Positions 23,941-58,736 of a DNA stretch of 64,000 nt are shown here, one piece after another. The DNA comes from a phage. The stretch is taken from the sequence record PZ445437.1. One strand, 5' to 3'. The notes beneath the pieces are model-generated. The model was not told where the DNA came from and made no database searches. It saw only the letters and a list, made by a program, of their open reading frames with translations. A program made the translations under genes and the position numbers. How positions within the stretch are numbered: the first letter of the stretch is position 1; each line of letters starts with the position of its first letter.

Positions 23941-23971
23941 TTTATGTTCCTCATGTTATGTCAGTAAGATT

Positions 23972-24000
23972 ATTATAACACAACACGAGGGACTTGTAAA
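23972..24000 (-). promoter_or_regulatory. sigma70-type early promoter (TTTACA-17-TATAAT) for the alt.-3-position gene
   Basis: minus strand GTTTACA agtccctcgtgttgtgt TATAAT; 54-bp cassette duplicated at 39254-39307. Confidence 0.65.
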
Positions 24001-26058
24001 CTACATCTTGAACTTTTTAGACATTCCGTTGATGTTAACCAAAGAAGCCAAGATTTGAGAAACTTCGTTTTCCTCTTCTTTTGATTCTTCTACAAGGAAT
24101 TGATTAAACCCGGCCATTGGACGAACTTCGCCAGTTTCCATTAGATGATCGCCATCATATACCGATTCTTCTAATTGTTCAGAAGGAGGAACGATTGTGC
24201 CTTCGATTAGATACTTGTTATAAGCAGTTTCTTTCATCATGTACGTGCTTACTTTATTAATCTTCAACAAAATTCCACGCGGTAGAATAACTTCAGCTTC
24301 TGATGGAAATCCTGATAAATGACCTGGAACGATAACTTTGATTCGCTCAGCTCCTTTAATTACCATACCCACGCTAGTTTCAGCATCTTCATTAGCATAT
24401 GTAGAATGACTACCCATATGCATCAAATCTTCTGCATCAACAGAACCTTCTCCTTCGCCAGAAAATACTGCACCGGAATCATCTAGAGCCATATAGTTTT
24501 TACCATGCTCACCGAAGATATTTGGTTTAAGTGATGTCGATACGAAGTTCTTGAAATAGAACATTTTATTTTCAATATTGTGACGCAAAGTTTTAAAGGT
24601 AACTTCTTGTCCACGGTAAAGTGTAGTTCCTGGAGGAAGAACTGAACCTTTAGCGAATGCAGAATCCAGCGTCTCAATATGTTTAATAGCTCGTTCCATA
24701 TATTCTTCACGGGTAGAATCTGGTTTACCCAAAAGGAACGAGTTCATTTCAACATATGAATCTGCGCAATAATCTTCAATTACGTCAGATTCAGCCTGAG
24801 TTAATCCTTTTGGAGTTACTTCAGTACTTGCATATTCATATGCCTGAGCGGCAGATTCATTAATCAATTTATAAATGCCATTCATGACAAATTGAATAAT
24901 AGCTGTCTTTTCATCTGGCGTAGCTTTAGAACCTTTAACTAAATCATTGATAATTTTCTTAATAACATCAAAACTATTAGAAATATTAATATCAGCAAGA
25001 TCGCTTAAAATTTTATCAGTTTTATAATCAAAGAATTCTTTATTCTTTAAATATTCTTGAGAACCTTGATATGATGTATCGCTCTGCAACTTGATAGATG
25101 GATCACGTAAACGCGCATGGGCTAATGCAATATGATTTCGGAAGTTTTCTAGTTCATAATCGTTAGATTTAAAACGAGAAGCACTTCTCATACCACCGAT
25201 AGCTCCTTTGCCGAAGTTTGAACCAATCTGAATAACGCCAGAGTTCATTGGTCCTTCTGCTTTATATACCGGAACTTTGGATTCAAACTCTTGATATTTC
25301 TTAGCAGCGAAGCTATCACCCTGAAGTGAAGCATCAACAGTAGAATATTGAGCTTGTGCTGCTAATCGACGACTAATTTTAGTTTTCTGAATAACAGCTT
25401 GATCCGTGCGCTTATCATTTTCCAAAGCAATAGAAGCAGCAACTGCGACAGCTTTAGGAACAGCATTACCTGTTTTAACGTCTACATAAACATCACCAAC
25501 CTTTGATTCAACTTTTGTGAATAACTCAGTTGAAATAGGAGGTACACCTGGAATGTCTTCTAAATTGGCATTTTTACGGTAAACCATAATATATGCATAT
25601 TTCTTATCATAGTCCCAGATTTCCTTTAAAAGAACATATCGACCTGCTCCTTTAGTACGTACTAAACGGTCAGCAATAACTTGCATTTGACGAGCAGCGC
25701 CATTTGTTTTACTCTTTAGTACGCGGAATAAGCATGCATCAATTTTATACTGTTTCATTGTTTGAAGAGCAGTATCAAAAACAGCATTAATGACGCCAAT
25801 TGGATTTCCACCCAAGTTTTTAAGCTTAACTAATGATAGTTTCTCATTAACACCTATCATTACGATATGCATCATTTTGTCGCCTGGCTTAACGTTTTTA
25901 TTCGTATCACCGCCAGAGGTGTATGTACAAAATCTAAATCCAGGAAGCACGCTTTCTTCACCGGCTTGAATAGCAAAAATTTGTGGTATTTTATGCTTAG
26001 GATTTAAGTTAACAACCGGCGCCGAAGCGCCGTCAAATAATTCTGTAATAAGTTCCAT
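24001..26058 (-). CDS. Alt-like ADP-ribosyltransferase, second paralog (packaged internal protein type)
   Basis: 685-aa ORF; N-terminus MELITELFD...NLNPKHKIPQIF near-identical to Alt; C-terminal R (LYRGQ), FVSTSL and EAEVILPRG motifs. Confidence 0.85.
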   Translation of the reverse strand: MELITELFDGASAPVVNLNPKHKIPQIFAIQAGEESVLPGFRFCTYTSGGDTNKNVKPGDKMMHIVMIGVNEKLSLVKLKNLGGNPIGVINAVFDTALQTMKQYKIDACLFRVLKSKTNGAARQMQVIADRLVRTKGAGRYVLLKEIWDYDKKYAYIMVYRKNANLEDIPGVPPISTELFTKVESKVGDVYVDVKTGNAVPKAVAVAASIALENDKRTDQAVIQKTKISRRLAAQAQYSTVDASLQGDSFAAKKYQEFESKVPVYKAEGPMNSGVIQIGSNFGKGAIGGMRSASRFKSNDYELENFRNHIALAHARLRDPSIKLQSDTSYQGSQEYLKNKEFFDYKTDKILSDLADINISNSFDVIKKIINDLVKGSKATPDEKTAIIQFVMNGIYKLINESAAQAYEYASTEVTPKGLTQAESDVIEDYCADSYVEMNSFLLGKPDSTREEYMERAIKHIETLDSAFAKGSVLPPGTTLYRGQEVTFKTLRHNIENKMFYFKNFVSTSLKPNIFGEHGKNYMALDDSGAVFSGEGEGSVDAEDLMHMGSHSTYANEDAETSVGMVIKGAERIKVIVPGHLSGFPSEAEVILPRGILLKINKVSTYMMKETAYNKYLIEGTIVPPSEQLEESVYDGDHLMETGEVRPMAGFNQFLVEESKEEENEVSQILASLVNINGMSKKFKM

Positions 26059-31404: not shown

Positions 31405-31603
31405 TTTCAATGCTTATAATTTCAACATCAGCCCAATGACCATAGCAAGGAAGACGAAATTCAACTGGCCAGTTAGGGTCCTTTTCTAATATAATAGACT
31501 TAACTTGTGGTTCTTCGTGTTCATCAGTATACGGATTTTTATCTGTTACTTTATATGTGACCTTAATGTACTGAATTCCAAAAATCTTATTAATTATATT
31601 CAT
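31397..31603 (-). CDS. hypothetical protein
   Basis: 68-aa ORF, ATG, translationally coupled in 30.x operon. Confidence 0.6.
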   Translation of the reverse strand: MNIINKIFGIQYIKVTYKVTDKNPYTDEHEEPQVKSIILEKDPNWPVEFRLPCYGHWADVEIISIENV

Positions 31604-31797
31604 ACTAATTCCTTTAATCCGTAGATAGGAGATAATTCATCACCCATACGAAGGTCTTCATTTCCATCTACCCAGGAAACAATATAAGCCTCTTTTATTT
31701 GAATACCACTCCATTTAAATGGAGGTAGAACCTTAGAAATTAATCCAGGTATACCAACTCCCTTTAATTCAACGGTTTGACCTAAAAAGAATTTCAT
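31600..31797 (-). CDS. hypothetical protein
   Basis: 65-aa ORF, ATGA-coupled. Confidence 0.6.
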   Translation of the reverse strand: MKFFLGQTVELKGVGIPGLISKVLPPFKWSGIQIKEAYIVSWVDGNEDLRMGDELSPIYGLKELV

Positions 31798-32084
31798 TAA
31801 AACCTCATCTGAAAACCATGCGATTTAACGTTACCACCGCCAATATCAGAAATATTAATTTCACGCGCAATTGAAGGGTCAATGTCAATTTCACGATTGA
31901 GTTTAGTGATAGCTAAAGTATCGCGCCCATTTACAGTACGGAACTCTAAAGGACAAACCACATCAACGTAGTTTTTAATCGATTCACTAGTAGGCTGCAA
32001 ATGAGCAGGAAGGTCTTTAGGCGCCTTTGAGAAAACCACTTCACAGAAATTTTTGCGGGTATCAAAATAAGTAGTCATAAACAT
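31797..32084 (-). CDS. hypothetical protein
   Basis: 95-aa ORF; GAGGA SD 9 nt upstream of ATG. Confidence 0.65.
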   Translation of the reverse strand: MFMTTYFDTRKNFCEVVFSKAPKDLPAHLQPTSESIKNYVDVVCPLEFRTVNGRDTLAITKLNREIDIDPSIAREINISDIGGGNVKSHGFQMRF

Positions 32085-32101
32085 AATATTTTCCTCAGTA
32101 A

Positions 32102-32128
32102 GGGGCCGAAGCCCCTCATTTTATTTTT
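32102..32128 (+). terminator. plus-oriented terminator-like hairpin inside the minus-strand early operon
   Basis: GGGGC-CGAA-GCCCC followed on the plus strand by TCATTTTATTTTT; on minus strand no U-run. Confidence 0.4.
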
Positions 32129-32492
32129 AAATATCAAATTCGTTAAGAACTACATCAAAGATTGCTTCCAAGTGCTCAGGTTTAGCTTTGTTACTCAGAA
32201 TATGACGAATCCAAGTTTTAACTAAGAGTTTACGATTAGCACCATTCCAGCAAGGATGAGTCCCTAAATCGCGTTGGCGGAAATCATCATCCAGAGCGAT
32301 TTTGAAGTTGGAACCTTTCATCGTGATTGAAACCGTGATACCGTTTTCAAATCGCATATAAACGTAGTTAGGAGTCATATACTGTTCAATTTCGCATACT
32401 GATCCGTTTTGATGTTTCCAGAGGCAAATAGTATCAATAGAACCTGCAATACCATTAGAAACATATTTACGTTCAAAGTTGATGTAGTTCAT
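32127..32492 (-). CDS. hypothetical protein (T4 30.6 position)
   Basis: ORF-track TTG start replaced by ATG 32492 (MNYINFERKY...) with GGAGA SD. Confidence 0.65.
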   Translation of the reverse strand: MNYINFERKYVSNGIAGSIDTICLWKHQNGSVCEIEQYMTPNYVYMRFENGITVSITMKGSNFKIALDDDFRQRDLGTHPCWNGANRKLLVKTWIRHILSNKAKPEHLEAIFDVVLNEFDI

Positions 32493-32528
32493 TTTATTCT
32501 CCAAGATGTTTAATTGCGGTACAGGTAT

Positions 32529-32556
32529 ATAATATCATATCCTGTACCAAAGTAAA
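32529..32556 (-). promoter_or_regulatory. sigma70-type early promoter (TTTACT-16-TATTAT) with 8-bp inverted repeat bracketing -10
   Basis: minus strand GTTTACT...TATTAT; GGTACAGG / CCTGTACC arms at 32518-32525 and 32541-32548. Confidence 0.5.
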
Positions 32557-32559
32557 CAA

Positions 32560-32892
32560 TTATTTTACTACTTTCCAATGCTGCATGTCAAGTTTACCAA
32601 CTTTTTTCATCTTCTCAATTAAGCGTTCTGCACGTTGGCGAGCTGTAACATAATGCCATTCGCCTAATTCATTTTGTTCAATTTTTCCAACGATTACTGT
32701 ATTCAATTCATAAATCCAACCAGTAAAGAAATTATGAACTTGAATTGTAAAGGTGAAATCTGTTCCCATACCTTCTGTTGTTTCTACTTCAATAATATCA
32801 CCTTCAACTGCCATTAAGAACCACATAGTTTCATTATATTTACCATTGAAGCATTTAGTTTTAACTGCAGCGTTCAGATTAATCGTTTTCAT
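32560..32892 (-). CDS. hypothetical protein (T4 30.7 position)
   Basis: 110-aa ORF, ATG with AAGGAG SD. Confidence 0.7.
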   Translation of the reverse strand: MKTINLNAAVKTKCFNGKYNETMWFLMAVEGDIIEVETTEGMGTDFTFTIQVHNFFTGWIYELNTVIVGKIEQNELGEWHYVTARQRAERLIEKMKKVGKLDMQHWKVVK

Positions 32893-32919
32893 TTTATTCT
32901 CCTTTGTTTGTGTAAGATA

Positions 32920-32948
32920 ATACTATCACAAAGGAACTATACTGTAAA
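32920..32948 (-). promoter_or_regulatory. sigma70-type early promoter (TTTACA-17-TAGTAT) with inverted repeat covering spacer and SD
   Basis: minus TGTTTACA gtatagttcctttgtga TAGTAT; arms TCCTTTGT/ACAAAGGA at 32900-32907 and 32928-32935. Confidence 0.5.
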
Positions 32949-32968
32949 CAACTTTATGCAATCTTTGG

Positions 32969-32997
32969 AAAATAAAAAAGGACTCCCGAAGGAGTCC
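32969..32997 (-). terminator. rho-independent terminator (minus strand) after the small basic protein gene
   Basis: GGACTCC-CGAA-GGAGTCC hairpin followed on minus strand by UUUUUUAUU. Confidence 0.65.
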
Positions 32998-33002
32998 TCA
33001 AC

Positions 33003-33221
33003 TTATGCTTTCTGCTTACCAAAACGAGAAGCATCATCTCGAAGAACCGCACGTGCTCGGCGCATGATCTTCTCAACAGTTTGATTGATACGAGAGTTCG
33101 ACCCACGCTTGTAACCAGCGCGTTTAGAATCACCAACTTTCTTTTCAACTGCTTTCTTTGCTTTAACTTGTTTTGCCATTATAAATTCTCTTTTAAATGA
33201 AAATGCAGGACTTATTGGCAT
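33003..33221 (-). CDS. small basic (Lys/Arg-rich) protein (T4 30.8 position); start uncertain (33221 or 33179)
   Basis: ORF with ATG at 33221 and internal ATG 33179 (MAKQVKAKKAVEKKVGDSKRAGYKRGS...). Confidence 0.55.
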   Translation of the reverse strand: MPISPAFSFKREFIMAKQVKAKKAVEKKVGDSKRAGYKRGSNSRINQTVEKIMRRARAVLRDDASRFGKQKA

Positions 33222-33400
33222 TGCCTGCGCAAGCCCTCAAAGGGGTACTTAGGTTTTGAATATTTACCGACAGGATAACCATAAACCTCGTCATCATACC
33301 ACCAAGACTTACACAGATAACACTTTTCTGACGCATGATAGTAACATTCAAGAGGTACACCATAAAACTGCCGGGGTCTTAAAACTATAATGATTCGCAA
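33212..33400 (-). CDS. hypothetical Cys/aromatic-rich small protein (T4 30.9 position), TTG start only
   Basis: 62-aa ORF with no in-frame ATG; start is TTG in ORF track. Confidence 0.35.
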   Translation of the reverse strand: MRIIIVLRPRQFYGVPLECYYHASEKCYLCKSWWYDDEVYGYPVGKYSKPKYPFEGLRRQCQ

Positions 33401-33468
33401 ATCATTAATCAGACAGTTCGATGGCTCCTCGATTTTAGCTCACACTAAGGCAGTGAATCTCCAATAAA

Positions 33469-33717
33469 TTACTTCAATGTTACCACAAAGTGACGAACTG
33501 CTTTTCGTGCAGCAGAAGCCAGAGGCTTAGCATACTTAAGTTCATCTTTTTCCTGAAGCTCAGCAGCTAATGCAGTTTGAGCAGGATTCAGATGTTTGAA
33601 ATAACGCAGGATTTCAAGAGCTTCGGCTTCAACATCAATAGATGCGCCATAGTTTTCGTGACCATTATTCCATGCGTTTCGTTGCAGTTCAAGAGCGTGT
33701 TGTAATTGTTTAATCAT
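33469..33717 (-). CDS. rIII: rIII lysis-inhibition accessory protein
   Basis: 82-aa ORF recognised as T4 rIII (MIKQLQHALELQRNAWNNGHENYGASIDVEAEALEILRYFKHLNP...). Confidence 0.93.
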   Translation of the reverse strand: MIKQLQHALELQRNAWNNGHENYGASIDVEAEALEILRYFKHLNPAQTALAAELQEKDELKYAKPLASAARKAVRHFVVTLK

Positions 33718-33835
33718 TTAAAAATTCTCGTTAGAGATTAAAACTCGGTAGTCACGTTCTTCTGAATTTCATCTTCTTTCGACAGATCTCTCAGTTGTAG
33801 ACTACCACATAGAATTGAAACTCAATTCATATTAT

Positions 33836-33843
33836 TATTTATA
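33836..33843 (-). promoter_or_regulatory. candidate late promoter TATAAATA (minus) upstream of rIII
   Basis: plus TATTTATA immediately after gene 31 stop, ~120 nt upstream of rIII. Confidence 0.4.
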
Positions 33844-34179
33844 TCACTTATAAAGACACGGAATAGCTTTATAGTGACAAGTAACGAATTTTTGTTTAAT
33901 TTCTTTTGGCTGCTTAAGACCCAGAGCTACAAAAGGATGCGGAACATTTCGAATTTGACCAACTGGAAGAGAAGTCAAATCGCCAACTTCGCAGAAACCT
34001 TCAGGAACATCAGGACCAACAGAGTGAACTACACACAGTTCAGGAACTTCACCTTGAACACGTTTACCGATAATAAGTCCTGATTCTGTAACTTCTTCAT
34101 CACCGGCTTGTGCAGGTTCAGAAACTAAAATAACATATTCACCGACAGCACGAATTGGTAGCTGTTGTACTTCAGACAT
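33844..34179 (-). CDS. 31: gp31 co-chaperonin (GroES analogue for gp23 folding)
   Basis: 111-aa ORF recognised as T4 gp31 ([48 protein letters not shown]...). Confidence 0.95.
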
Positions 34180-34209
34180 CGTTTTTCCTTTTTGTTAACA
34201 GATGAATTA

Positions 34210-34234
34210 ATAATAACAAATAATTCTTAAAGCA
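34210..34234 (-). promoter_or_regulatory. candidate MotA-dependent middle promoter for gene 31
   Basis: minus strand aaTGCTTTA (MotA box) - 12 nt - TATTAT. Confidence 0.45.
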
Positions 34235-34235
34235 T

Positions 34236-34544
34236 TTATTTACCAATAAATTGAAGCAAATGCTCAACTTTCATACCATTAACAGAAATCAATTTGTCAA
34301 TAGAAAAACCTCGCCATGCACCAAGCTCAACATCAAACACTGGAATCATGTCAGTAGATTCTTTCCGAGTAGATTCAGTCAATTTACCAGTTTGCATGGT
34401 TGGCATAAAGTCTGCATCACGAGTACCTTTCATAGTACGAATAGTACCATCAGACTTTTCAAAAACTACGTTTGAAACACCCATGGACAATTTAGTTTTC
34501 AAAATTTCACGAATTGCTACTTTCTGCTCAGTTGTCAGTTTCAT
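34236..34544 (-). CDS. hypothetical protein (T4 31.1 position)
   Basis: 102-aa ORF with ATG. Confidence 0.7.
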   Translation of the reverse strand: MKLTTEQKVAIREILKTKLSMGVSNVVFEKSDGTIRTMKGTRDADFMPTMQTGKLTESTRKESTDMIPVFDVELGAWRGFSIDKLISVNGMKVEHLLQFIGK

Positions 34545-35933: not shown

Positions 35934-35994
35934 TTTGTTTTCCTCATTTGTTTGGTAGAGCCATAATATCACAACTCTACCGTAAAGTAAACTA

Positions 35995-36270
35995 TTAAAT
36001 CGCTTTGAATTCCGCAGTTTGAGATTCAAAGCGAATGTCGCCTTTGATAACTAACTCAGCATCAAGACCGAATACGACAATGATATGCGCGGAACCTGGA
36101 TACAGCGTAATGGCAACAGAATCCACCTGGTCTGGAAGCAAAGTGTTTAATACATGAGTCACTTGAGCATGGATTCGAAGCTCGGCTGCGTTATCAAGCT
36201 TTTCAAACATATTATTAGCGATAATTTGACTAAACACTACTTCTACGATTTTAGAATAAGTCGGAAACAT
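35995..36270 (-). CDS. hypothetical protein (cd.3 position)
   Basis: 91-aa ORF, ATG. Confidence 0.65.
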   Translation of the reverse strand: MFPTYSKIVEVVFSQIIANNMFEKLDNAAELRIHAQVTHVLNTLLPDQVDSVAITLYPGSAHIIVVFGLDAELVIKGDIRFESQTAEFKAI

Positions 36271-39249: not shown

Positions 39250-39277
39250 AAAGTCCTCATGTTATGTCAGTAAAACT

Positions 39278-39306
39278 ACTATAACACAACATGAGGGACT
39301 TGTAAA
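39278..39306 (-). promoter_or_regulatory. sigma70-type early promoter (TTTACA-17-TATAGT) for alc, second copy of duplicated cassette
   Basis: minus GTTTACA agtccctcatgttgtgt TATAGT; 50/54 identical to copy at 23948-24001. Confidence 0.65.
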
Positions 39307-39310
39307 CAGC

Positions 39311-48517: not shown

Positions 48518-48760
48518 TCAAACAGACTTTTTCACAATTTTCCAATCAGCTTTAAACTGTTCAACGTCAGAATGGTAAATCCAGAATCCTGCGCTTTCTC
48601 CATCCTCATAAAGAGGGCATCCATCACATTCATCTTCCCATCCCATATCACGCAAAAGACGTTCAGCTTTTTCAACAAGTTCAGAATCTTTACCAATAAT
48701 ATTAAAATACCATTTACCTCTAACTTCTGAATCTTTGATACTCTGACGTTGTAATCTCAT
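48518..48760 (-). CDS. hypothetical protein (frd-32 interval)
   Basis: ORF-track TTG start replaced by ATG 48760 (MRLQRQSIK...) with AAGGAG SD. Confidence 0.6.
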   Translation of the reverse strand: MRLQRQSIKDSEVRGKWYFNIIGKDSELVEKAERLLRDMGWEDECDGCPLYEDGESAGFWIYHSDVEQFKADWKIVKKSV

Positions 48761-48785
48761 TTTATTCTCCTTAGTTGATAAGGCT

Positions 48786-48814
48786 ATAGTATCACTACCA
48801 TAGCCTGTTGTAAA
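48786..48814 (-). promoter_or_regulatory. candidate sigma70-type early promoter (TTTACA-17-TACTAT) with 7-bp inverted repeat at -10
   Basis: minus GTTTACA acaggctatggtagtga TACTAT; AGGCTAT/ATAGCCT arms. Confidence 0.4.
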
Positions 48815-48817
48815 CAA

Positions 48818-49732: not shown

Positions 49733-49824
49733 ATTATTTTCCTCTTTAATCATCAGCAGTATTGCCGATAGTTGTATAGTACCATGGAAGGACAAGGATG
49801 TAAACCGTTTTGTGAAAAAATTTT

Positions 49825-53638: not shown

Positions 53639-53667
53639 ATGAACCTCGTTCAATTAGTGAGATTTCT

Positions 53668-53696
53668 ATTATATACCATCCAAATCTTAAAGTAAA
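53668..53696 (-). promoter_or_regulatory. sigma70-type early promoter (TTTACT-17-TATAAT) for rnh
   Basis: minus GTTTACT ttaagatttggatggta TATAAT; 6-bp inverted repeat AGATTT/AAATCT brackets -10. Confidence 0.6.
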
Positions 53697-53700
53697 CAAG

Positions 53701-53742: not shown

Positions 53743-56700
53743 ATGGCCGAGATTAAAAGAAAGTTCAGAGCAGAAGACGGTCTGGACGCAGGTGGCGATA
53801 AAATAATCAACGTAGCTTTAGCTGATCGTACCGTAGGAACTGACGGTGTTAACGTTGATTACTTAATTCAAGAAAACACAGTTCAACAATATGATCCAAC
53901 TCGTGGATATTTAAAAGATTTTGTAATCATTTATGATAACCGCTTTTGGGCTGCTATAAATGATATTCCAAAACCGGCAGGAGCTTTTAATAGCGGGCGC
54001 TGGAGAGCATTACGTACAGACGCAAACTGGATTACGGTTTCATCTGGTTCATATCAATTAAAATCCGGTGAAGCTATTTCGGTTAATACTGCAACTGGAA
54101 ATGACATCACGTTTACTTTACCATCTTCTCCAATTGATGGAGATACTATCGTTCTCCAAGATATTGGAGGAAAACCTGGAGTTAACCAAGTTTTAATTGT
54201 AGCTCCAGTACAAAGTATTGTAAACTTTAGAGGTGAACAAGTACGTTCAGTACTAATGACTCATCCAAAGTCACAGCTAGTTTTAATTTTTAGTAATCGT
54301 CTGTGGCAAATGTATGTCGCTGATTATAGTAGAGAAGCTGTAGTTGTAACACCAGCGAATACTTATCAAGCGCAATCTAATGATTTTATCGTGCGTAGAT
54401 TTACTTCTGCTGCACCAATTAATGTTAAACTTCCAAGATTTGCTAATCATGGCGATATTATTAATTTCGTCGATTTAGATAAACTGAATCCACTTTATCA
54501 TACAATTGTTACTACATACGATGAAACGACTTCAGTACAAGAAGTTGGAACTCATTCCATTGAAGGCCGTACATCGATTGACGGTTTCTTGATGTTTGAT
54601 GATAATGAGAAATTGTGGAGATTGTTTGACGGGGATAGTAAAGCACGTTTACGCATTATAACGACTAATTCTAATATTCGTCCAAACGAAGAAGTTATGG
54701 TATTTGGTGCGAATAACGGAACAACTCAGACAATTGAACTTCAGCTTCCTACTGATATTTCTGTTGGTGATACTGTTAAAATTTCCATGAATTACATGAG
54801 AAAAGGACAAACAGTTAAAATCAAAGCTGCAGGTGAAGATAAAATTGCTTCTTCAGTTCAATTGCTGCAATTCCCAAAACGCTCAGAATATCCACCTGAA
54901 GCTGAATGGGTTACAGTTCAAGAATTAGTTTTTAACGGTGAAACTAATTATGTTCCAGTTTTACAACTTGCTTATATAGAAGATTCTGATGGAAAATACT
55001 GGGTTGTACAGCAAAACGTTCCAACTGTAGAAAGAGTTGATTCTTTAAATGATTCTACTAGAGCAAGATTAGGCGTAATTGCTTTAGCTACACAAGCTCA
55101 AGCTAATGTCGATTTAGAAAATTCTCCACAAAAAGAATTAGCAATTACTCCAGAAACATTAGCTAACCGTACTGCTACAGAAACTCGTAGAGGTATCGCA
55201 AGAATAGCAACTACTGCTCAAGTGAATCAGAACACCACATTCTCTTTTGCTGATGATATTATCATCACTCCTAAAAAGCTGAATGAAAGAACTGCTACAG
55301 AAACTCGCAGAGGTGTCGCAGAAATTGCTACGCAGCAGGAAACTAATACAGGTACTGATGATACTACAATCATTACTCCTAAAAAGCTTCAAGCTCGTCA
55401 AGGTTCTGAATCATTATCTGGTATTGTAACTTTTGTATCTACTGCAGGTGCTACTCCAGCTTCTAGCCGTGAATTAAATGGTACGAATGTTTATAATAAA
55501 AACACTAATAATTTAGTTGTTTCACCTAAAGCTTTGGATCAGTATAAAGCTACTCCAACACAGCAAGGTGCAGTAATTTTAGCAGTTGAAAGTGAAGTAA
55601 TTGCTGGACAAAGCCAAGAAGGATGGGCAAATGCTGTTGTAACGCCAGAAACGTTACACAAAAAGACATCAACTGATGGAAGAATTGGTTTAATTGAAAT
55701 TGCTACACAAAGTGAAGTTAATACAGGAACTGATTATACTCGTGCAGTCACTCCTAAAACTTTAAATGACCGTAGAGCAACTGAAGGTTTAAGTGGTATA
55801 GCTGAAATTGCTACACAAGTTGAATTCGACGCAGGCGTCGACGATACTCGTATCTCTACACCATTAAAAATTAAAACCAGATTTAATAGTACTGATCGTA
55901 CTTCTGTTGTTGCTCTATCTGGATTGGTTGAATCAGGAACTCTCTGGGACCATTATACCCTTAATATTCTTGAAGCAAATGAGACACAGCGTGGCACACT
56001 TCGTGTAGCTACACAAGTTGAAGCTGCTGCAGGAACATTAGATAATGTTTTAATAACTCCTAAAAAGCTTTTAGGTACTAAATCTACCGAATCACAAGAA
56101 GGTGTTATTAAAGTTGCAACTCAGTCTGAAACTGTGACTGGAACATCAGCAAATACTGCTGTATCTCCAAAAAATTTAAAATGGATTGTGCAGAGTGAAC
56201 CTACCTGGGCAGCTACTACTGCGATAAGAGGTTTTGTTAAAACTTCATCTGGTTCAATTACATTCGTTGGTAATGATACAGTCGGTTCTACTCAGGATTT
56301 AGAGCTATATGAGAAAAATAGCTATGCAGTATCACCATATGAATTAAACCGTGTATTAGCAAATTATTTGCCGTTAAAAGCAAAAGCTGCTGATACAAAT
56401 TTATTGGATGGTCTAGATTCATCTCAGTTCATTCGTAGGGATATTGCACAGACGGTTAATGGTTCACTAACCTTAACCCAACAAACGAATCTGAGTGCCC
56501 CTCTTGTATCATCTAGTACTGCTGCGTTTGGTGGTTCAGTTTCGGCAAATAGTACATTAACTATTTCTAATACTGGAACGGCAACTCGTCTGATTTTTGA
56601 AAAAGGACCTCAAACTGGAACTAACCCAGCACAGACGATGACTATAAGAGTTTGGGGAAATCAGTTTGGTGGCGGATCAGATACAACACGTTCTACTGTA

Positions 56701-57620: not shown

Positions 57621-58736
57621 ATGGAAAAATTTATGGCAGAGTTTGGACAAGGATATGTCCAAACTCCATTTTTATCGGAAAGCAATTCAGTAAGATACAA
57701 AATAAGTATAGCGGGTTCTTGCCCGCTTTCTACTGCAGGACCATATGTTAAATTTCAGGATAATCCTGTAGGAAATCAAACATTTAGCGCAGGTCTTCAT
57801 TTAAGAGTTTTTGACCCTTTCACAGGAGCATTAGTTGATAGTAAGTCATATGCTTTTTCGACTTCAAATGATACTACATCAGCTGCTTTTGTTAGTTTCA
57901 TGAATTCTTTGACGAATAATCGAATTGTTGCTATATTAACTAACGGAAAGGTTAATTTTCCTCCTGAAGTAGTATCTTGGTTAAGAACCGCCGGAACGTC
58001 TGCCTTTCCATCTGATTCTATATTGTCAAGATTTGACGTATCATATGCTGCTTTTTATACTTCTTCTAAAAGAGCTATTGCATTAGAGCATGTTAAACTG
58101 AGTAATAGAAAAAGCACAGATGATTATCAAACTATTTTAGATGTTGTATTTGACAGTTTAGAAGACGTCGGAGCTACCGGATTTCCAAGAAGAACGTATG
58201 AAAGTGTTGAGCAATTTATGTCGGCAGTCGGTGGAACTAATAACGAAATTGCGAGATTGCCAACTTCAGCTGCTATAAGTAAATTATCTGATTATAATTT
58301 AATTCCTGGTGATGTTCTTTATCTTAAAGCACAGCTATATGCTGATGCTGATTTACTTGCTCTTGGAACTACGAATATATCCATTCGATTTTATAATGCA
58401 TCTAATGGATATATTTCCTCGACACAAGCTGAGTTTACTGGGCAAGCTGGGTCATGGGAATTAAAGGAAGATTATGTAGTTGTTCCAGAAAACGCAGTAG
58501 GATTTACGATATATGCACAAAGAACTGCGCAAGCTGGCCAAGGTGGCATGAGAAATTTAAGCTTTTCTGAAGTATCAAGAAACGGCGGTATTTCAAAACC
58601 TGCTGAATTTGGCGTCAATGGTATTCGTGTTAATTATATCTGTGAATCTGCTTCACCTCCGGATATAATGGTACTTCCTACGCAAGCATCGTCTAAAGCT
58701 GGTAAAGTGTTTGGACAAGAATTTAGAGAAGTTTAA
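57621..58736 (+). CDS. 35: long tail fibre hinge connector gp35
   Basis: 371-aa ORF at gene 35 position. Confidence 0.9.
   Translation: MEKFMAEFGQGYVQTPFLSESNSVRYKISIAGSCPLSTAGPYVKFQDNPVGNQTFSAGLHLRVFDPFTGALVDSKSYAFSTSNDTTSAAFVSFMNSLTNNRIVAILTNGKVNFPPEVVSWLRTAGTSAFPSDSILSRFDVSYAAFYTSSKRAIALEHVKLSNRKSTDDYQTILDVVFDSLEDVGATGFPRRTYESVEQFMSAVGGTNNEIARLPTSAAISKLSDYNLIPGDVLYLKAQLYADADLLALGTTNISIRFYNASNGYISSTQAEFTGQAGSWELKEDYVVVPENAVGFTIYAQRTAQAGQGGMRNLSFSEVSRNGGISKPAEFGVNGIRVNYICESASPPDIMVLPTQASSKAGKVFGQEFREV

Follow-up and report, generated by a model that had tools for sequence, protein, structure and literature searches.

Bacteriophage T4 is a long-studied model of temporal gene control, and to our knowledge the accepted picture of its regulation has promoter-split inhibitory hairpins only at late genes. 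Here we describe inverted repeats that surround the -10 hexamers of early promoters in a 64,000-nucleotide stretch of phage DNA (sequence record PZ445437.1). The whole stretch is called the window, and positions are those of the window unless another genome is named. The focal repeat, at 32518-32548 on the minus strand, lies in the early promoter of gene 30.7.

Two described arrangements resemble these repeats. Hairpins split by a late promoter hide the translation initiation region of the T4 genes e, soc, 49, I-TevI and segB (PMC3014915, PMC2988022). The other arrangement is the PeSL (promoter-early stem-loop), an early promoter plus a stem-loop, defined in phages RB49 and phi1 by Arbiol et al. 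2010 (PMC2839356), who proposed terminator and recombination roles for these modules. Its PeSL subclasses include stem-loops 'between -35 and -10' and 'overlapping the -10', and analogous, more AT-rich motifs are placed at the internal-protein loci of T-even phages (PMC2839356, citing Repoila 1994). In the PST/T4 phages the stem-loops lie just upstream of the promoter, according to Comeau et al. 2014 (PMC4122927).

The hairpins in the window fit the PeSL anatomy and are of this already partly described kind, without the terminator signature. We consider it probable on balance, if only just, that they are promoter-embedded hairpins of the PeSL kind that are split by the transcription start and form only in RNA reading through from upstream.

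Hairpins at the early promoters of the window

The minus strand of the window carries early genes, and the pattern GTTTAC-N15-19-TAnnnT occurs nine times on that strand; 4.2 sites would be expected for the two strands combined. Eight of the nine lie directly 5' of a Shine-Dalgarno sequence (SD) and an ATG on the same strand, with 25-43 nt from the -10 to the ATG in all eight, and permitting one mismatch in the -35 yielded no window promoters beyond these. Seven of the eight gene-proximal promoters have a hairpin, the exception being frd.3 (promoter 49776-49805, G of GTTTAC at 49805). The first-pass annotation had listed six repeats and stated that every GTTTAC promoter it located had one. All six are present in the window, but the generalization fails at frd.3, which has no inverted repeat around its -10, and in T4, where only ~40-50% of early promoters have a hairpin and about half are without; the list also overlooked a seventh repeat, at cd.2.

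The 30.7 hairpin (32518-32548) is a perfect 8-bp repeat, as first described, with its 5' arm GGTACAGG at 32541-32548 and its 3' arm CCTGTACC at 32518-32525. The promoter occupies 32529-32557, with the -35 GTTTAC at 32552-32557, a 17-nt spacer and the -10 TATTAT at 32529-32534, such that the 15-nt loop contains the extended -10. The 3' arm stops 26 nt before the ATG (32492) and leaves the SD uncovered. The RNA fold is -16.1 kcal/mol with z of -5.3 against dinucleotide shuffles, which are the reference for all z values given here. Two further hairpins share this general layout. That of cd.2 (35954-35981, minus strand) is a perfect 7-bp repeat, GGTAGAG/CTCTACC, around the -10 TATTAT of the promoter at 35963-35992 (G of GTTTAC at 35992, ATG 35933), and folds at -14.9 kcal/mol (z -5.0). 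At frd.1 the promoter is at 48786-48815 (-10 TACTAT, G of GTTTAC at 48815, ATG 48760) and the repeat AGGCTAT/ATAGCCT folds at -15.6 kcal/mol (z -5.0); it had been placed at 48786-48814 but actually spans 48781-48806, with the 3' arm overlapping the last 2 nt of the -10.

At three promoters the 3' arm reaches the SD. The 30.8 hairpin (32900-32935, minus strand) pairs TCCTTTGT with ACAAAGGA over 8 bp, the 3' arm overlapping the SD AAGGAG as originally reported; its promoter is at 32920-32949 (G of GTTTAC at 32949, ATG 32892) and its fold is -12.1 kcal/mol (z -3.5). The alc hairpin (39250-39301, minus strand; promoter 39278-39307, G of GTTTAC at 39307, ATG 39249) has a perfect 9-bp core, CCTCATGTT/AACATGAGG, at 39255-39296, a 5' arm in the spacer and a 3' arm, AACATGAGGAC, that includes the SD GAGGA, and folds at -24.3 kcal/mol (z -6.8). 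The alc promoter is part of a 54-bp cassette, -35 to SD, that is duplicated on the minus strand, at 39254-39307 (alc) and 23948-24001 (alt.-3). In the second copy the hairpin (23944-23995; promoter 23972-24001, G of GTTTAC at 24001, ATG 23940) contains the SD in its stem and folds at -21.4 kcal/mol as RNA (z -7.6) and at -7.5 kcal/mol as DNA. Both cassettes had been credited with an inverted repeat, which is perfect at alc; at alt.-3 the pairing, CTCGTG/CATGAG, needs a G.U pair and a bulge. The two cassettes differ at 5 positions and have unrelated flanks. The alc cassette reads CTCATG (Watson-Crick), and the alt.-3 copy and both T4 copies read CTCGTG (G.U pair).

Six of the seven window hairpins thus fold at energies between -12 and -24 kcal/mol, with z between -3.5 and -7.6. 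The remaining repeat, AGATTT/AAATCT at 53660-53687 in the rnh promoter (53668-53697, minus strand, G of GTTTAC at 53697), is present as noted in the first-pass annotation but is only 6 bp long and folds at -3.1 kcal/mol (z 0.04), with 92 of 200 shuffles folding equally well or better. It is at chance level and probably not a genuine member of the class.

In every case the 5' arm is in the spacer between -35 and -10, usually ending 4-8 nt before the -10, and the 3' arm takes one of two placements. At 30.7, cd.2 and frd.1 it starts 0-3 nt past the -10, with the start site inside the arm; among the many T4 examples of a 3' arm abutting the -10 are those at 57990 (13 bp), 65799 (14 bp) and 20612 (9 bp). 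At alc, alt.-3 and 30.8, as at T4 regB, denV and others, the arm is placed deeper in the leader and takes in the SD. The start site was put ~7 nt after the -10 by inference rather than by mapping, and the splitting of the hairpin rests on that position. Strong spacer-leader duplexes (n=23) divide into 11 over the SD and 12 upstream of it. SD-covering hairpins are found at about 1/4 to 1/3 of T4 early promoters, with the strongest T4 examples at ipI, ipII, ipIII and denV. Stems around the -10 have arms of 6-13 bp and loops of 10-24 nt, and the spacing of the arms varies from 8 to >30 nt among promoters. The loop corresponds to the AT-rich extended -10, and the arms are GC-richer.

Enrichment at the -10 hexamer

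Sites were scored by whether the hexamer lies within a 6-24-nt loop of a perfect inverted repeat of at least 6 bp, which holds for 7.3% of window positions and 5.3% of positions in shuffles. Six of the nine window sites qualify (p=1e-5), as do 16 of the 41 early sites of the whole T4 genome, where the background is 7.7% (p=2e-8), and 9 of 23 non-redundant promoters from other T4-like lineages, where it is 5.8% (p=3e-6). The coverage of inverted repeats peaks sharply at the -10 and is back at background within ~15 nt on either side. Matched controls in T4 give the same result: the share is 39% at early promoters, compared with 8.7% at gene-upstream sites that lack one (Fisher p=4e-5) and 9.7% at TAnnnT hexamers in gene-upstream regions that lack one (Fisher p=1e-3). 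T4 late promoters, a known positive class, have an inverted repeat of at least 6 bp in 5 of 20 cases (25%). The repeats are a real, selected feature of T4-like early promoters as a class. A generic scan of IMG/VR with AAAGTTGTTTAC-N18-TAnnAT returned mostly unrelated contigs and a few extra examples.

Maintained pairing across lineages

Orthologous promoter loci were collected from IMG/VR and GenBank (labelled L0xx) and the arms compared sequence by sequence. The promoters have no arm motif in common (GGTACAGG, TCCTTTGT, AGGCTAT, GGTAGAG, CCTCATGTT). At the orthologous promoters of alc, 30.7 and cd.2 the arm sequences have been replaced wholesale and complementarity retained, which is the behavior across related phages that the first-pass annotation had proposed as a test. 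The alc promoter has six lineage-specific arm pairs, all of them complementary: GTCCCTCGTGTT/AACATGAGGAC in T4, TCTCCTCAT(G)/(C)ATGAGGAGA in JS98-like loci, CCCATTTTGTT/AACAAAATGGG in L033, TCTCCATTTGGTT/AACCAAATGGAGA in L036, CCGTTTGGTTG/CAACCAAACGG in L039 and GGGTGTAAGG/CCTTACACCC in L034.

The 30.7 arms GGTACAGG/CCTGTACC are unchanged in Tequatrovirus, Mosigvirus (RB69), a Gaprivervirus and JS98-like loci, where the flanks diverge, and one variant has a C-to-T change that leaves a G.U pair. The more distant L033-L035 have a 13-bp stem, GCTGATTGAGTGT/ACACTCAATCAGC, at the 30.7 promoter instead, and yet other phages an SD-covering stem, CTCCGTTGTAT/ATACAACGGAG. In L031 the cd.2 ortholog pairs GGTGGAGTT with AACTCTACC, one pair being G.U, in place of GGTAGAG/CTCTACC. 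A further hairpin at L033:11089, CCGGAAGT/ACTTCCGG, has the same loop as cd.2 and a near-identical leader, although its orthology with cd.2 is not established. The positional counterpart of the frd.1 hairpin in T4 is AGGGTA/TACCCT, a G-C to C-G change on both sides, and a variant in L021 has GGGCTAT, giving a G.U pair.

Pairing is also specific to each promoter. When spacers and leaders of 43 non-redundant promoters were swapped, the pairing of a spacer with its own leader reached -11.6 kcal/mol, compared with -7.1 kcal/mol for spacers with foreign leaders (p=9e-6), and the own leader ranked first of 43 in 15 cases. A consensus fold of eight alc-promoter orthologs (MAFFT and RNAalifold) missed the stems because the 3' arms are out of register.

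Two of these loci also differ in the DNA next to the hairpin. In T4 (146030-146143) a 22-codon unannotated open reading frame (ORF), MFAPYIMAAVMLVCLYLLIKAC, separates the hairpin promoter at 146143 from frd.1, whereas in the window (48760-48815) the promoter abuts frd.1 directly, so that T4 and the window differ by an indel adjoining the promoter cassette. In the JS98-like loci L023-L027, the 30.8 and 30.7 promoters, ~105 nt upstream of the starts of these genes, have nearly the same 3' half, agaC(A/C)TGTACCaaataatac...ctggagaataaaATG, and different 5' halves. The shared 3' halves are consistent with recombination between neighboring promoter cassettes.

Evidence for action as RNA or DNA

Since the start site lies between the arms, transcripts that begin at this promoter are without the 5' arm and remain open; read-through RNA from an upstream promoter would carry both arms and fold. 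Read-through is plausible at 30.7 and alc, because the minus strand has no terminator-like site in the stretch from the 30.8 to the 30.7 promoter, nor any upstream of that of alc. The predicted probability that the SD is unpaired averages 0.32 in read-through RNA and 0.53 in own-promoter RNA across T4 (p=2e-4). In the window the predicted difference is large at alc (0.02 in read-through and 0.67 in own-promoter RNA) and 30.8 (0.03 and 0.78), and at cd.2 (0.40 and 0.76) the SD is partly sequestered. At alt.-3 the SD is in the stem and the prediction does not separate the two RNAs (0.19 and 0.01), and no such sequestration is predicted for 30.7, frd.1 or rnh. The sense strand gives more stable RNA folds than the antisense strand, both in T4 (p=4e-4) and in other lineages (p=0.004). 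Among the suggestions of the first-pass annotation, an RNA element in read-through transcripts fits the placement of the arms best, and RNA-level action is favored but not proven, the direct tests of RNA against DNA being only suggestive.

Several observations weigh against this RNA reading. At the focal 30.7 hairpin the SD is predicted to be slightly more open in read-through RNA (0.76) than in own-promoter RNA (0.67), and with the hairpin off the SD a translational mechanism cannot apply to it. Part of the effect on SD accessibility is generic, because a longer RNA has more ways to pair. The sense/antisense asymmetry is confounded, because the wobble pairs of the extended -10 (GUG...UAU) stem from the promoter consensus, and with the extended -10 excluded it is -0.67 against a baseline of -0.33 (p=0.13). 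Interior arm mismatches are G.U in 15 cases and A.C in 6 (p=0.08), which is suggestive of RNA over DNA but not significant. Spacers show no general anti-SD signal, with anti-SD 4-mers in 11 of 43 and complementary 4-mers in 12 of 43. The compactness of T4 intergenic regions could make any intercistronic hairpin lie across the promoter; in both classes the -35 follows the upstream stop codon by a median of ~2-6 nt, on a rough ORF-based estimate of the stop. Nor do embedded hairpins replace an absent upstream terminator, an idea rejected with an odds ratio of 0.9 (p=1), and a literature search found no T4 start-site or 3'-end maps or experimental data for these promoters. We also rejected the idea that hairpins are favored where intergenic space is shortest, as the classes do not differ (p=0.64).

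Alternative explanations

The attenuation or termination of transcription arriving from upstream, as Arbiol et al. proposed for PeSL stem-loops, is an unlikely function for the window hairpins. Their position at the end of the upstream cistron would suit it, and that paper reports that one RB49/phi1 PeSL stem-loop lowered lacZ expression to a similar degree as the rrnB T1 terminator, and gives stem-loops overlapping the -10 as a common subclass (PMC2839356). However, no window stem around a -10 has a T-run on its 3' side and a terminator scan flags none of them, though it does flag true terminators such as the canonical one at 32978-32999 (on the minus strand just before the 30.8 promoter, with a T-run after GAGGACTCCTTCGGGAGTCCTT). 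Compared with intrinsic terminators, the stems also have a higher AT content and longer loops (10-24 nt), and about half of the strong stems place the 3' arm on the SD, for which a terminator has no need. Action as a DNA structure, with a cruciform or extruded hairpin that tunes promoter melting or marks a recombination site (as in PeSL shuffling and mini-circles), appears quite unlikely. In its favor are the AT-rich extended -10 as loop between GC-richer arms, the frequency of perfect Watson-Crick arms and a wobble asymmetry short of significance, the duplicated 54-bp cassette of alt.-3 and alc, and the mapping of an RB49 PeSL crossover inside the stem-loop's loop (PMC2839356). Yet loops of 10-24 nt with arms of 6-13 bp are costly as cruciforms and the single-stranded DNA hairpins reach only -5 to -13 kcal/mol, which also disfavors the extrusion-prone element of the first-pass annotation; alt.-3 depends on a G.U pair and drops from -21.4 kcal/mol as RNA to -7.5 kcal/mol as DNA. 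Because the arms are unique to each promoter they supply no homology for recombination between different promoters, and an SD-covering arm has no rationale at the level of DNA. A more specific form of this idea, in which the arms extrude under negative supercoiling or behind a passing polymerase and leave the extended -10 single-stranded, as a 'pre-melted' or locked early promoter, is very doubtful; it is still allowed because the wobble and strand-asymmetry tests are not significant. A loose parallel would be the hairpin promoters of the phage N4 virion RNA polymerase, and such a promoter state could contribute to the unexplained strength of T4 early promoters or to their abrupt shut-off.

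That the repeat is a palindromic operator bound by a dimeric protein of phage or host origin, such as the early-promoter shut-off factor envisaged in the first-pass annotation, is highly improbable. The dyad symmetry of the arms is centered on the -10, the 30.7 arms are invariant over four genera in which the flanks diverge, and how early promoters are shut off is described as incompletely understood (PMC3014915). A dimeric regulator common to the promoters is nevertheless unlikely because the arms differ between them; in addition the spacing is not fixed, orthologous promoters exchange the whole arm sequence and keep complementarity, and many early promoters have no repeat at all. There is similarly little to recommend a mutational by-product of template switching or quasi-palindrome correction during T4 replication without functional selection. 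T4 is a classic system for quasi-palindrome-templated mutation, and such an event would alter both arms in one step and mimic compensatory evolution. The enrichment is confined to ~20 nt at the -10, however, and absent from flanking intergenic DNA and matched gene-upstream sites, complementarity persists across genera with unrelated arms, and single-step transitions that leave G.U pairs are tolerated. Chance in AT-rich DNA, also raised in the first-pass annotation, has a negligible probability. Although ~7% of hexamer positions have a surrounding 6-bp repeat and the rnh repeat is indistinguishable from shuffles, chance is refuted for the class as a whole by p values of 1e-5 to 2e-8 against the genome background and 4e-5 against matched controls, by the positional profile, and by z values of -3.5 or lower in six of seven hairpins.

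A model for promoter-split hairpins

The analysis shows that the repeats exist, are enriched by position, keep their complementarity and are predicted to fold in an isoform-specific way; that they act in RNA and affect translation we infer. With the 5' arm in the spacer and the 3' arm among the initial bases of the transcript or deeper in the leader, only transcripts entering from upstream would contain a complete hairpin. In the SD-covering class (alc, 30.8, alt.-3) this fold would block translation of the read-through RNA, and the gene would be translated only from its own early promoter, while that promoter fires. The hairpins that leave the SD free (30.7, cd.2, frd.1) are under selection, and their role could be that of a decay or processing barrier in polycistronic RNA, with protection of the AU-rich promoter RNA and transcription attenuation as other candidates.

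If about half of all early promoters across Tevenvirinae lie within such hairpins, and these form only in read-through RNA, many immediate-early genes would depend on their own promoters for translation, which would end at early-promoter shut-off although middle-mode transcription still crosses the genes. The hairpins would then add a post-transcriptional layer to the early-to-middle switch, beside RegB. In annotation and engineering, a T4 early gene moved without its promoter spacer would be expected to have an altered leader fold.

Other features of the window

On sequence identity the window is a genome segment of a Tequatrovirus (T4-like phage). Over 31500-34500 it matches Escherichia phage KarlGJung at 100% identity, and T6, RB14-like and other phages at 97-98%. 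KarlGJung is collinear with the window at a constant offset only over ~30.2-40.7 kb; a slightly different offset (2493) occurs in patches between ~21.2 and 29.9 kb, and beyond ~41.4 kb the offsets shift or 25-mers no longer match. By this comparison the window genome is a mosaic relative to its best database match, so annotation transfer from KarlGJung is unreliable outside ~30.2-40.7 kb, and genes were therefore named by tblastn against T4, which assigns the promoter at 39307 to alc and that at 48815 to frd.1. A generic sigma-70 scan of the window gave 68 sites with 68.5 expected, and is thus useless for promoter calling here. An Rfam search of the whole window at gathering thresholds returned no family, not even at the td group I intron region.

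The ninth GTTTAC site, at 54196-54225 on the minus strand, has a full GTTTAC-N18-TACAAT but is antisense inside gene 34 (long tail fiber). A 6-bp repeat of its own, CTGGAG/CTCCAG, accompanies it, no ORF follows downstream, and the site is conserved in T4 at 151291; as far as the sequence tells, it could be an antisense promoter or a chance match.

The frd.3 promoter at 49776-49805 belongs to a second family of early-promoter cassettes, with a near-identical upstream part, tttcacaaaacGGTTTACa, and a conserved leader, TACTATacaactatcaactactga (TACTATacaactatc... at frd.3). Other members are at T4 positions 167086, 163673, 146875, 70696, 55384 and 27080. Neither the window member nor those of T4 have a repeat around the -10, and several of the cassettes lie behind a canonical terminator.

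The region upstream of cd.2 contains a 10-bp repeat, CGCTTTGAAT/ATTCAAAGCG, at 36001-36033 on the minus strand, with a 13-nt loop and no T-run. It stops 8 nt upstream of the -35 of the cd.2 promoter, and there are therefore two separate hairpins in this intergenic region. The cd.2 loop itself has a history in T4: positions 133300-133313 of NC_000866 (L004:33300-33313), orthologous to window 35961-35974, carry a misc_feature that reads 'inverted complement of previously reported sequence; corrects the early promoter Pe133295'. These 14 bases coincide exactly with the cd.2 hairpin loop, and the earlier T4 sequence therefore had the loop flipped between its inverted arms. To go by the sequence record, this could reflect a cloning or sequencing artefact or a real inversion of the loop. 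Natural loop-inverted variants of cd.2 were searched for, but with a perfect inverted repeat the inverted loop gives the reverse complement of the original, and the search was uninformative.

Comparison with known systems

The window hairpins resemble intrinsic (Rho-independent) terminators in being intergenic stem-loops at the end of the upstream cistron, but differ in having no U-tract, in loops that are long compared with 3-8 nt, and in escaping the terminator scan. They do not have the recurrent half-sites at fixed spacing of a palindromic operator, as arms and spacings differ for each promoter and ortholog.

The PeSL modules are much closer. Like them, the window promoters are compact intergenic modules made up of an AT-rich upstream region, an early promoter, a stem-loop, an SD and a start codon. 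The intergenic promoter of sigma-70 type (GTTTAC-N17/18-TAnnnT) is found at eight minus-strand places, a stable stem-loop at or overlapping the promoter at seven of the eight, and the SD and start codon at the 3' end at all eight. The published stems are drawn with G.T pairs and the modules can be duplicated within a genome, for which the alt.-3/alc cassette is a counterpart. Possible signs of PeSL-like recombination here are that 54-bp cassette, the shared 3' halves of the JS98-like loci and the frd.1 indel, the other arms being unique to their promoters. By sequence signature (no T-run, no terminator flag) the terminator or attenuator property of PeSLs is absent here. The RB49 stems are G/C tracts with demonstrated terminator activity, unlike the promoter-unique, more AT-rich stems of the window, which have no U-tract. 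The PST/T4 type of Comeau et al. 2014, PST/T4 being the species group of the closest relative of the window, is a terminator such as that at 32978-32999 and is distinct from the -10 repeats. SD sequestration is not discussed in the accessible text of the PeSL papers, and a text search of that of the 2010 paper does not find the word 'translation'. A literature search, which did not include Repoila 1994 and Miller 2003, found no earlier account of SD-sequestering hairpins at early promoters. Relative to the PeSL papers, as far as their available text extends, the compensatory evolution of the arms, the specificity for the own leader and the split between SD-covering and other stems appear to be new, and if the promoter-split model holds they would give a testable role to stem-loops so far discussed as terminators and recombination sites.

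With the late-promoter hairpins of T4 the window hairpins share a promoter inside the hairpin and an own transcript that lacks the 5' arm. In the late genes the longer transcripts hide the SD or AUG, and the same behavior is predicted for alc and 30.8 and may hold for alt.-3, whose stem contains the SD. The embedded promoter is, however, of the early sigma-70 type (GTTTAC...TAnnnT) and not a late TATAAATA, and about half of the stems, that of 30.7 included, miss the SD, the behavior here being known by prediction. The regulatory logic would also run the other way, restricting translation to the early period rather than delaying it to the late one.

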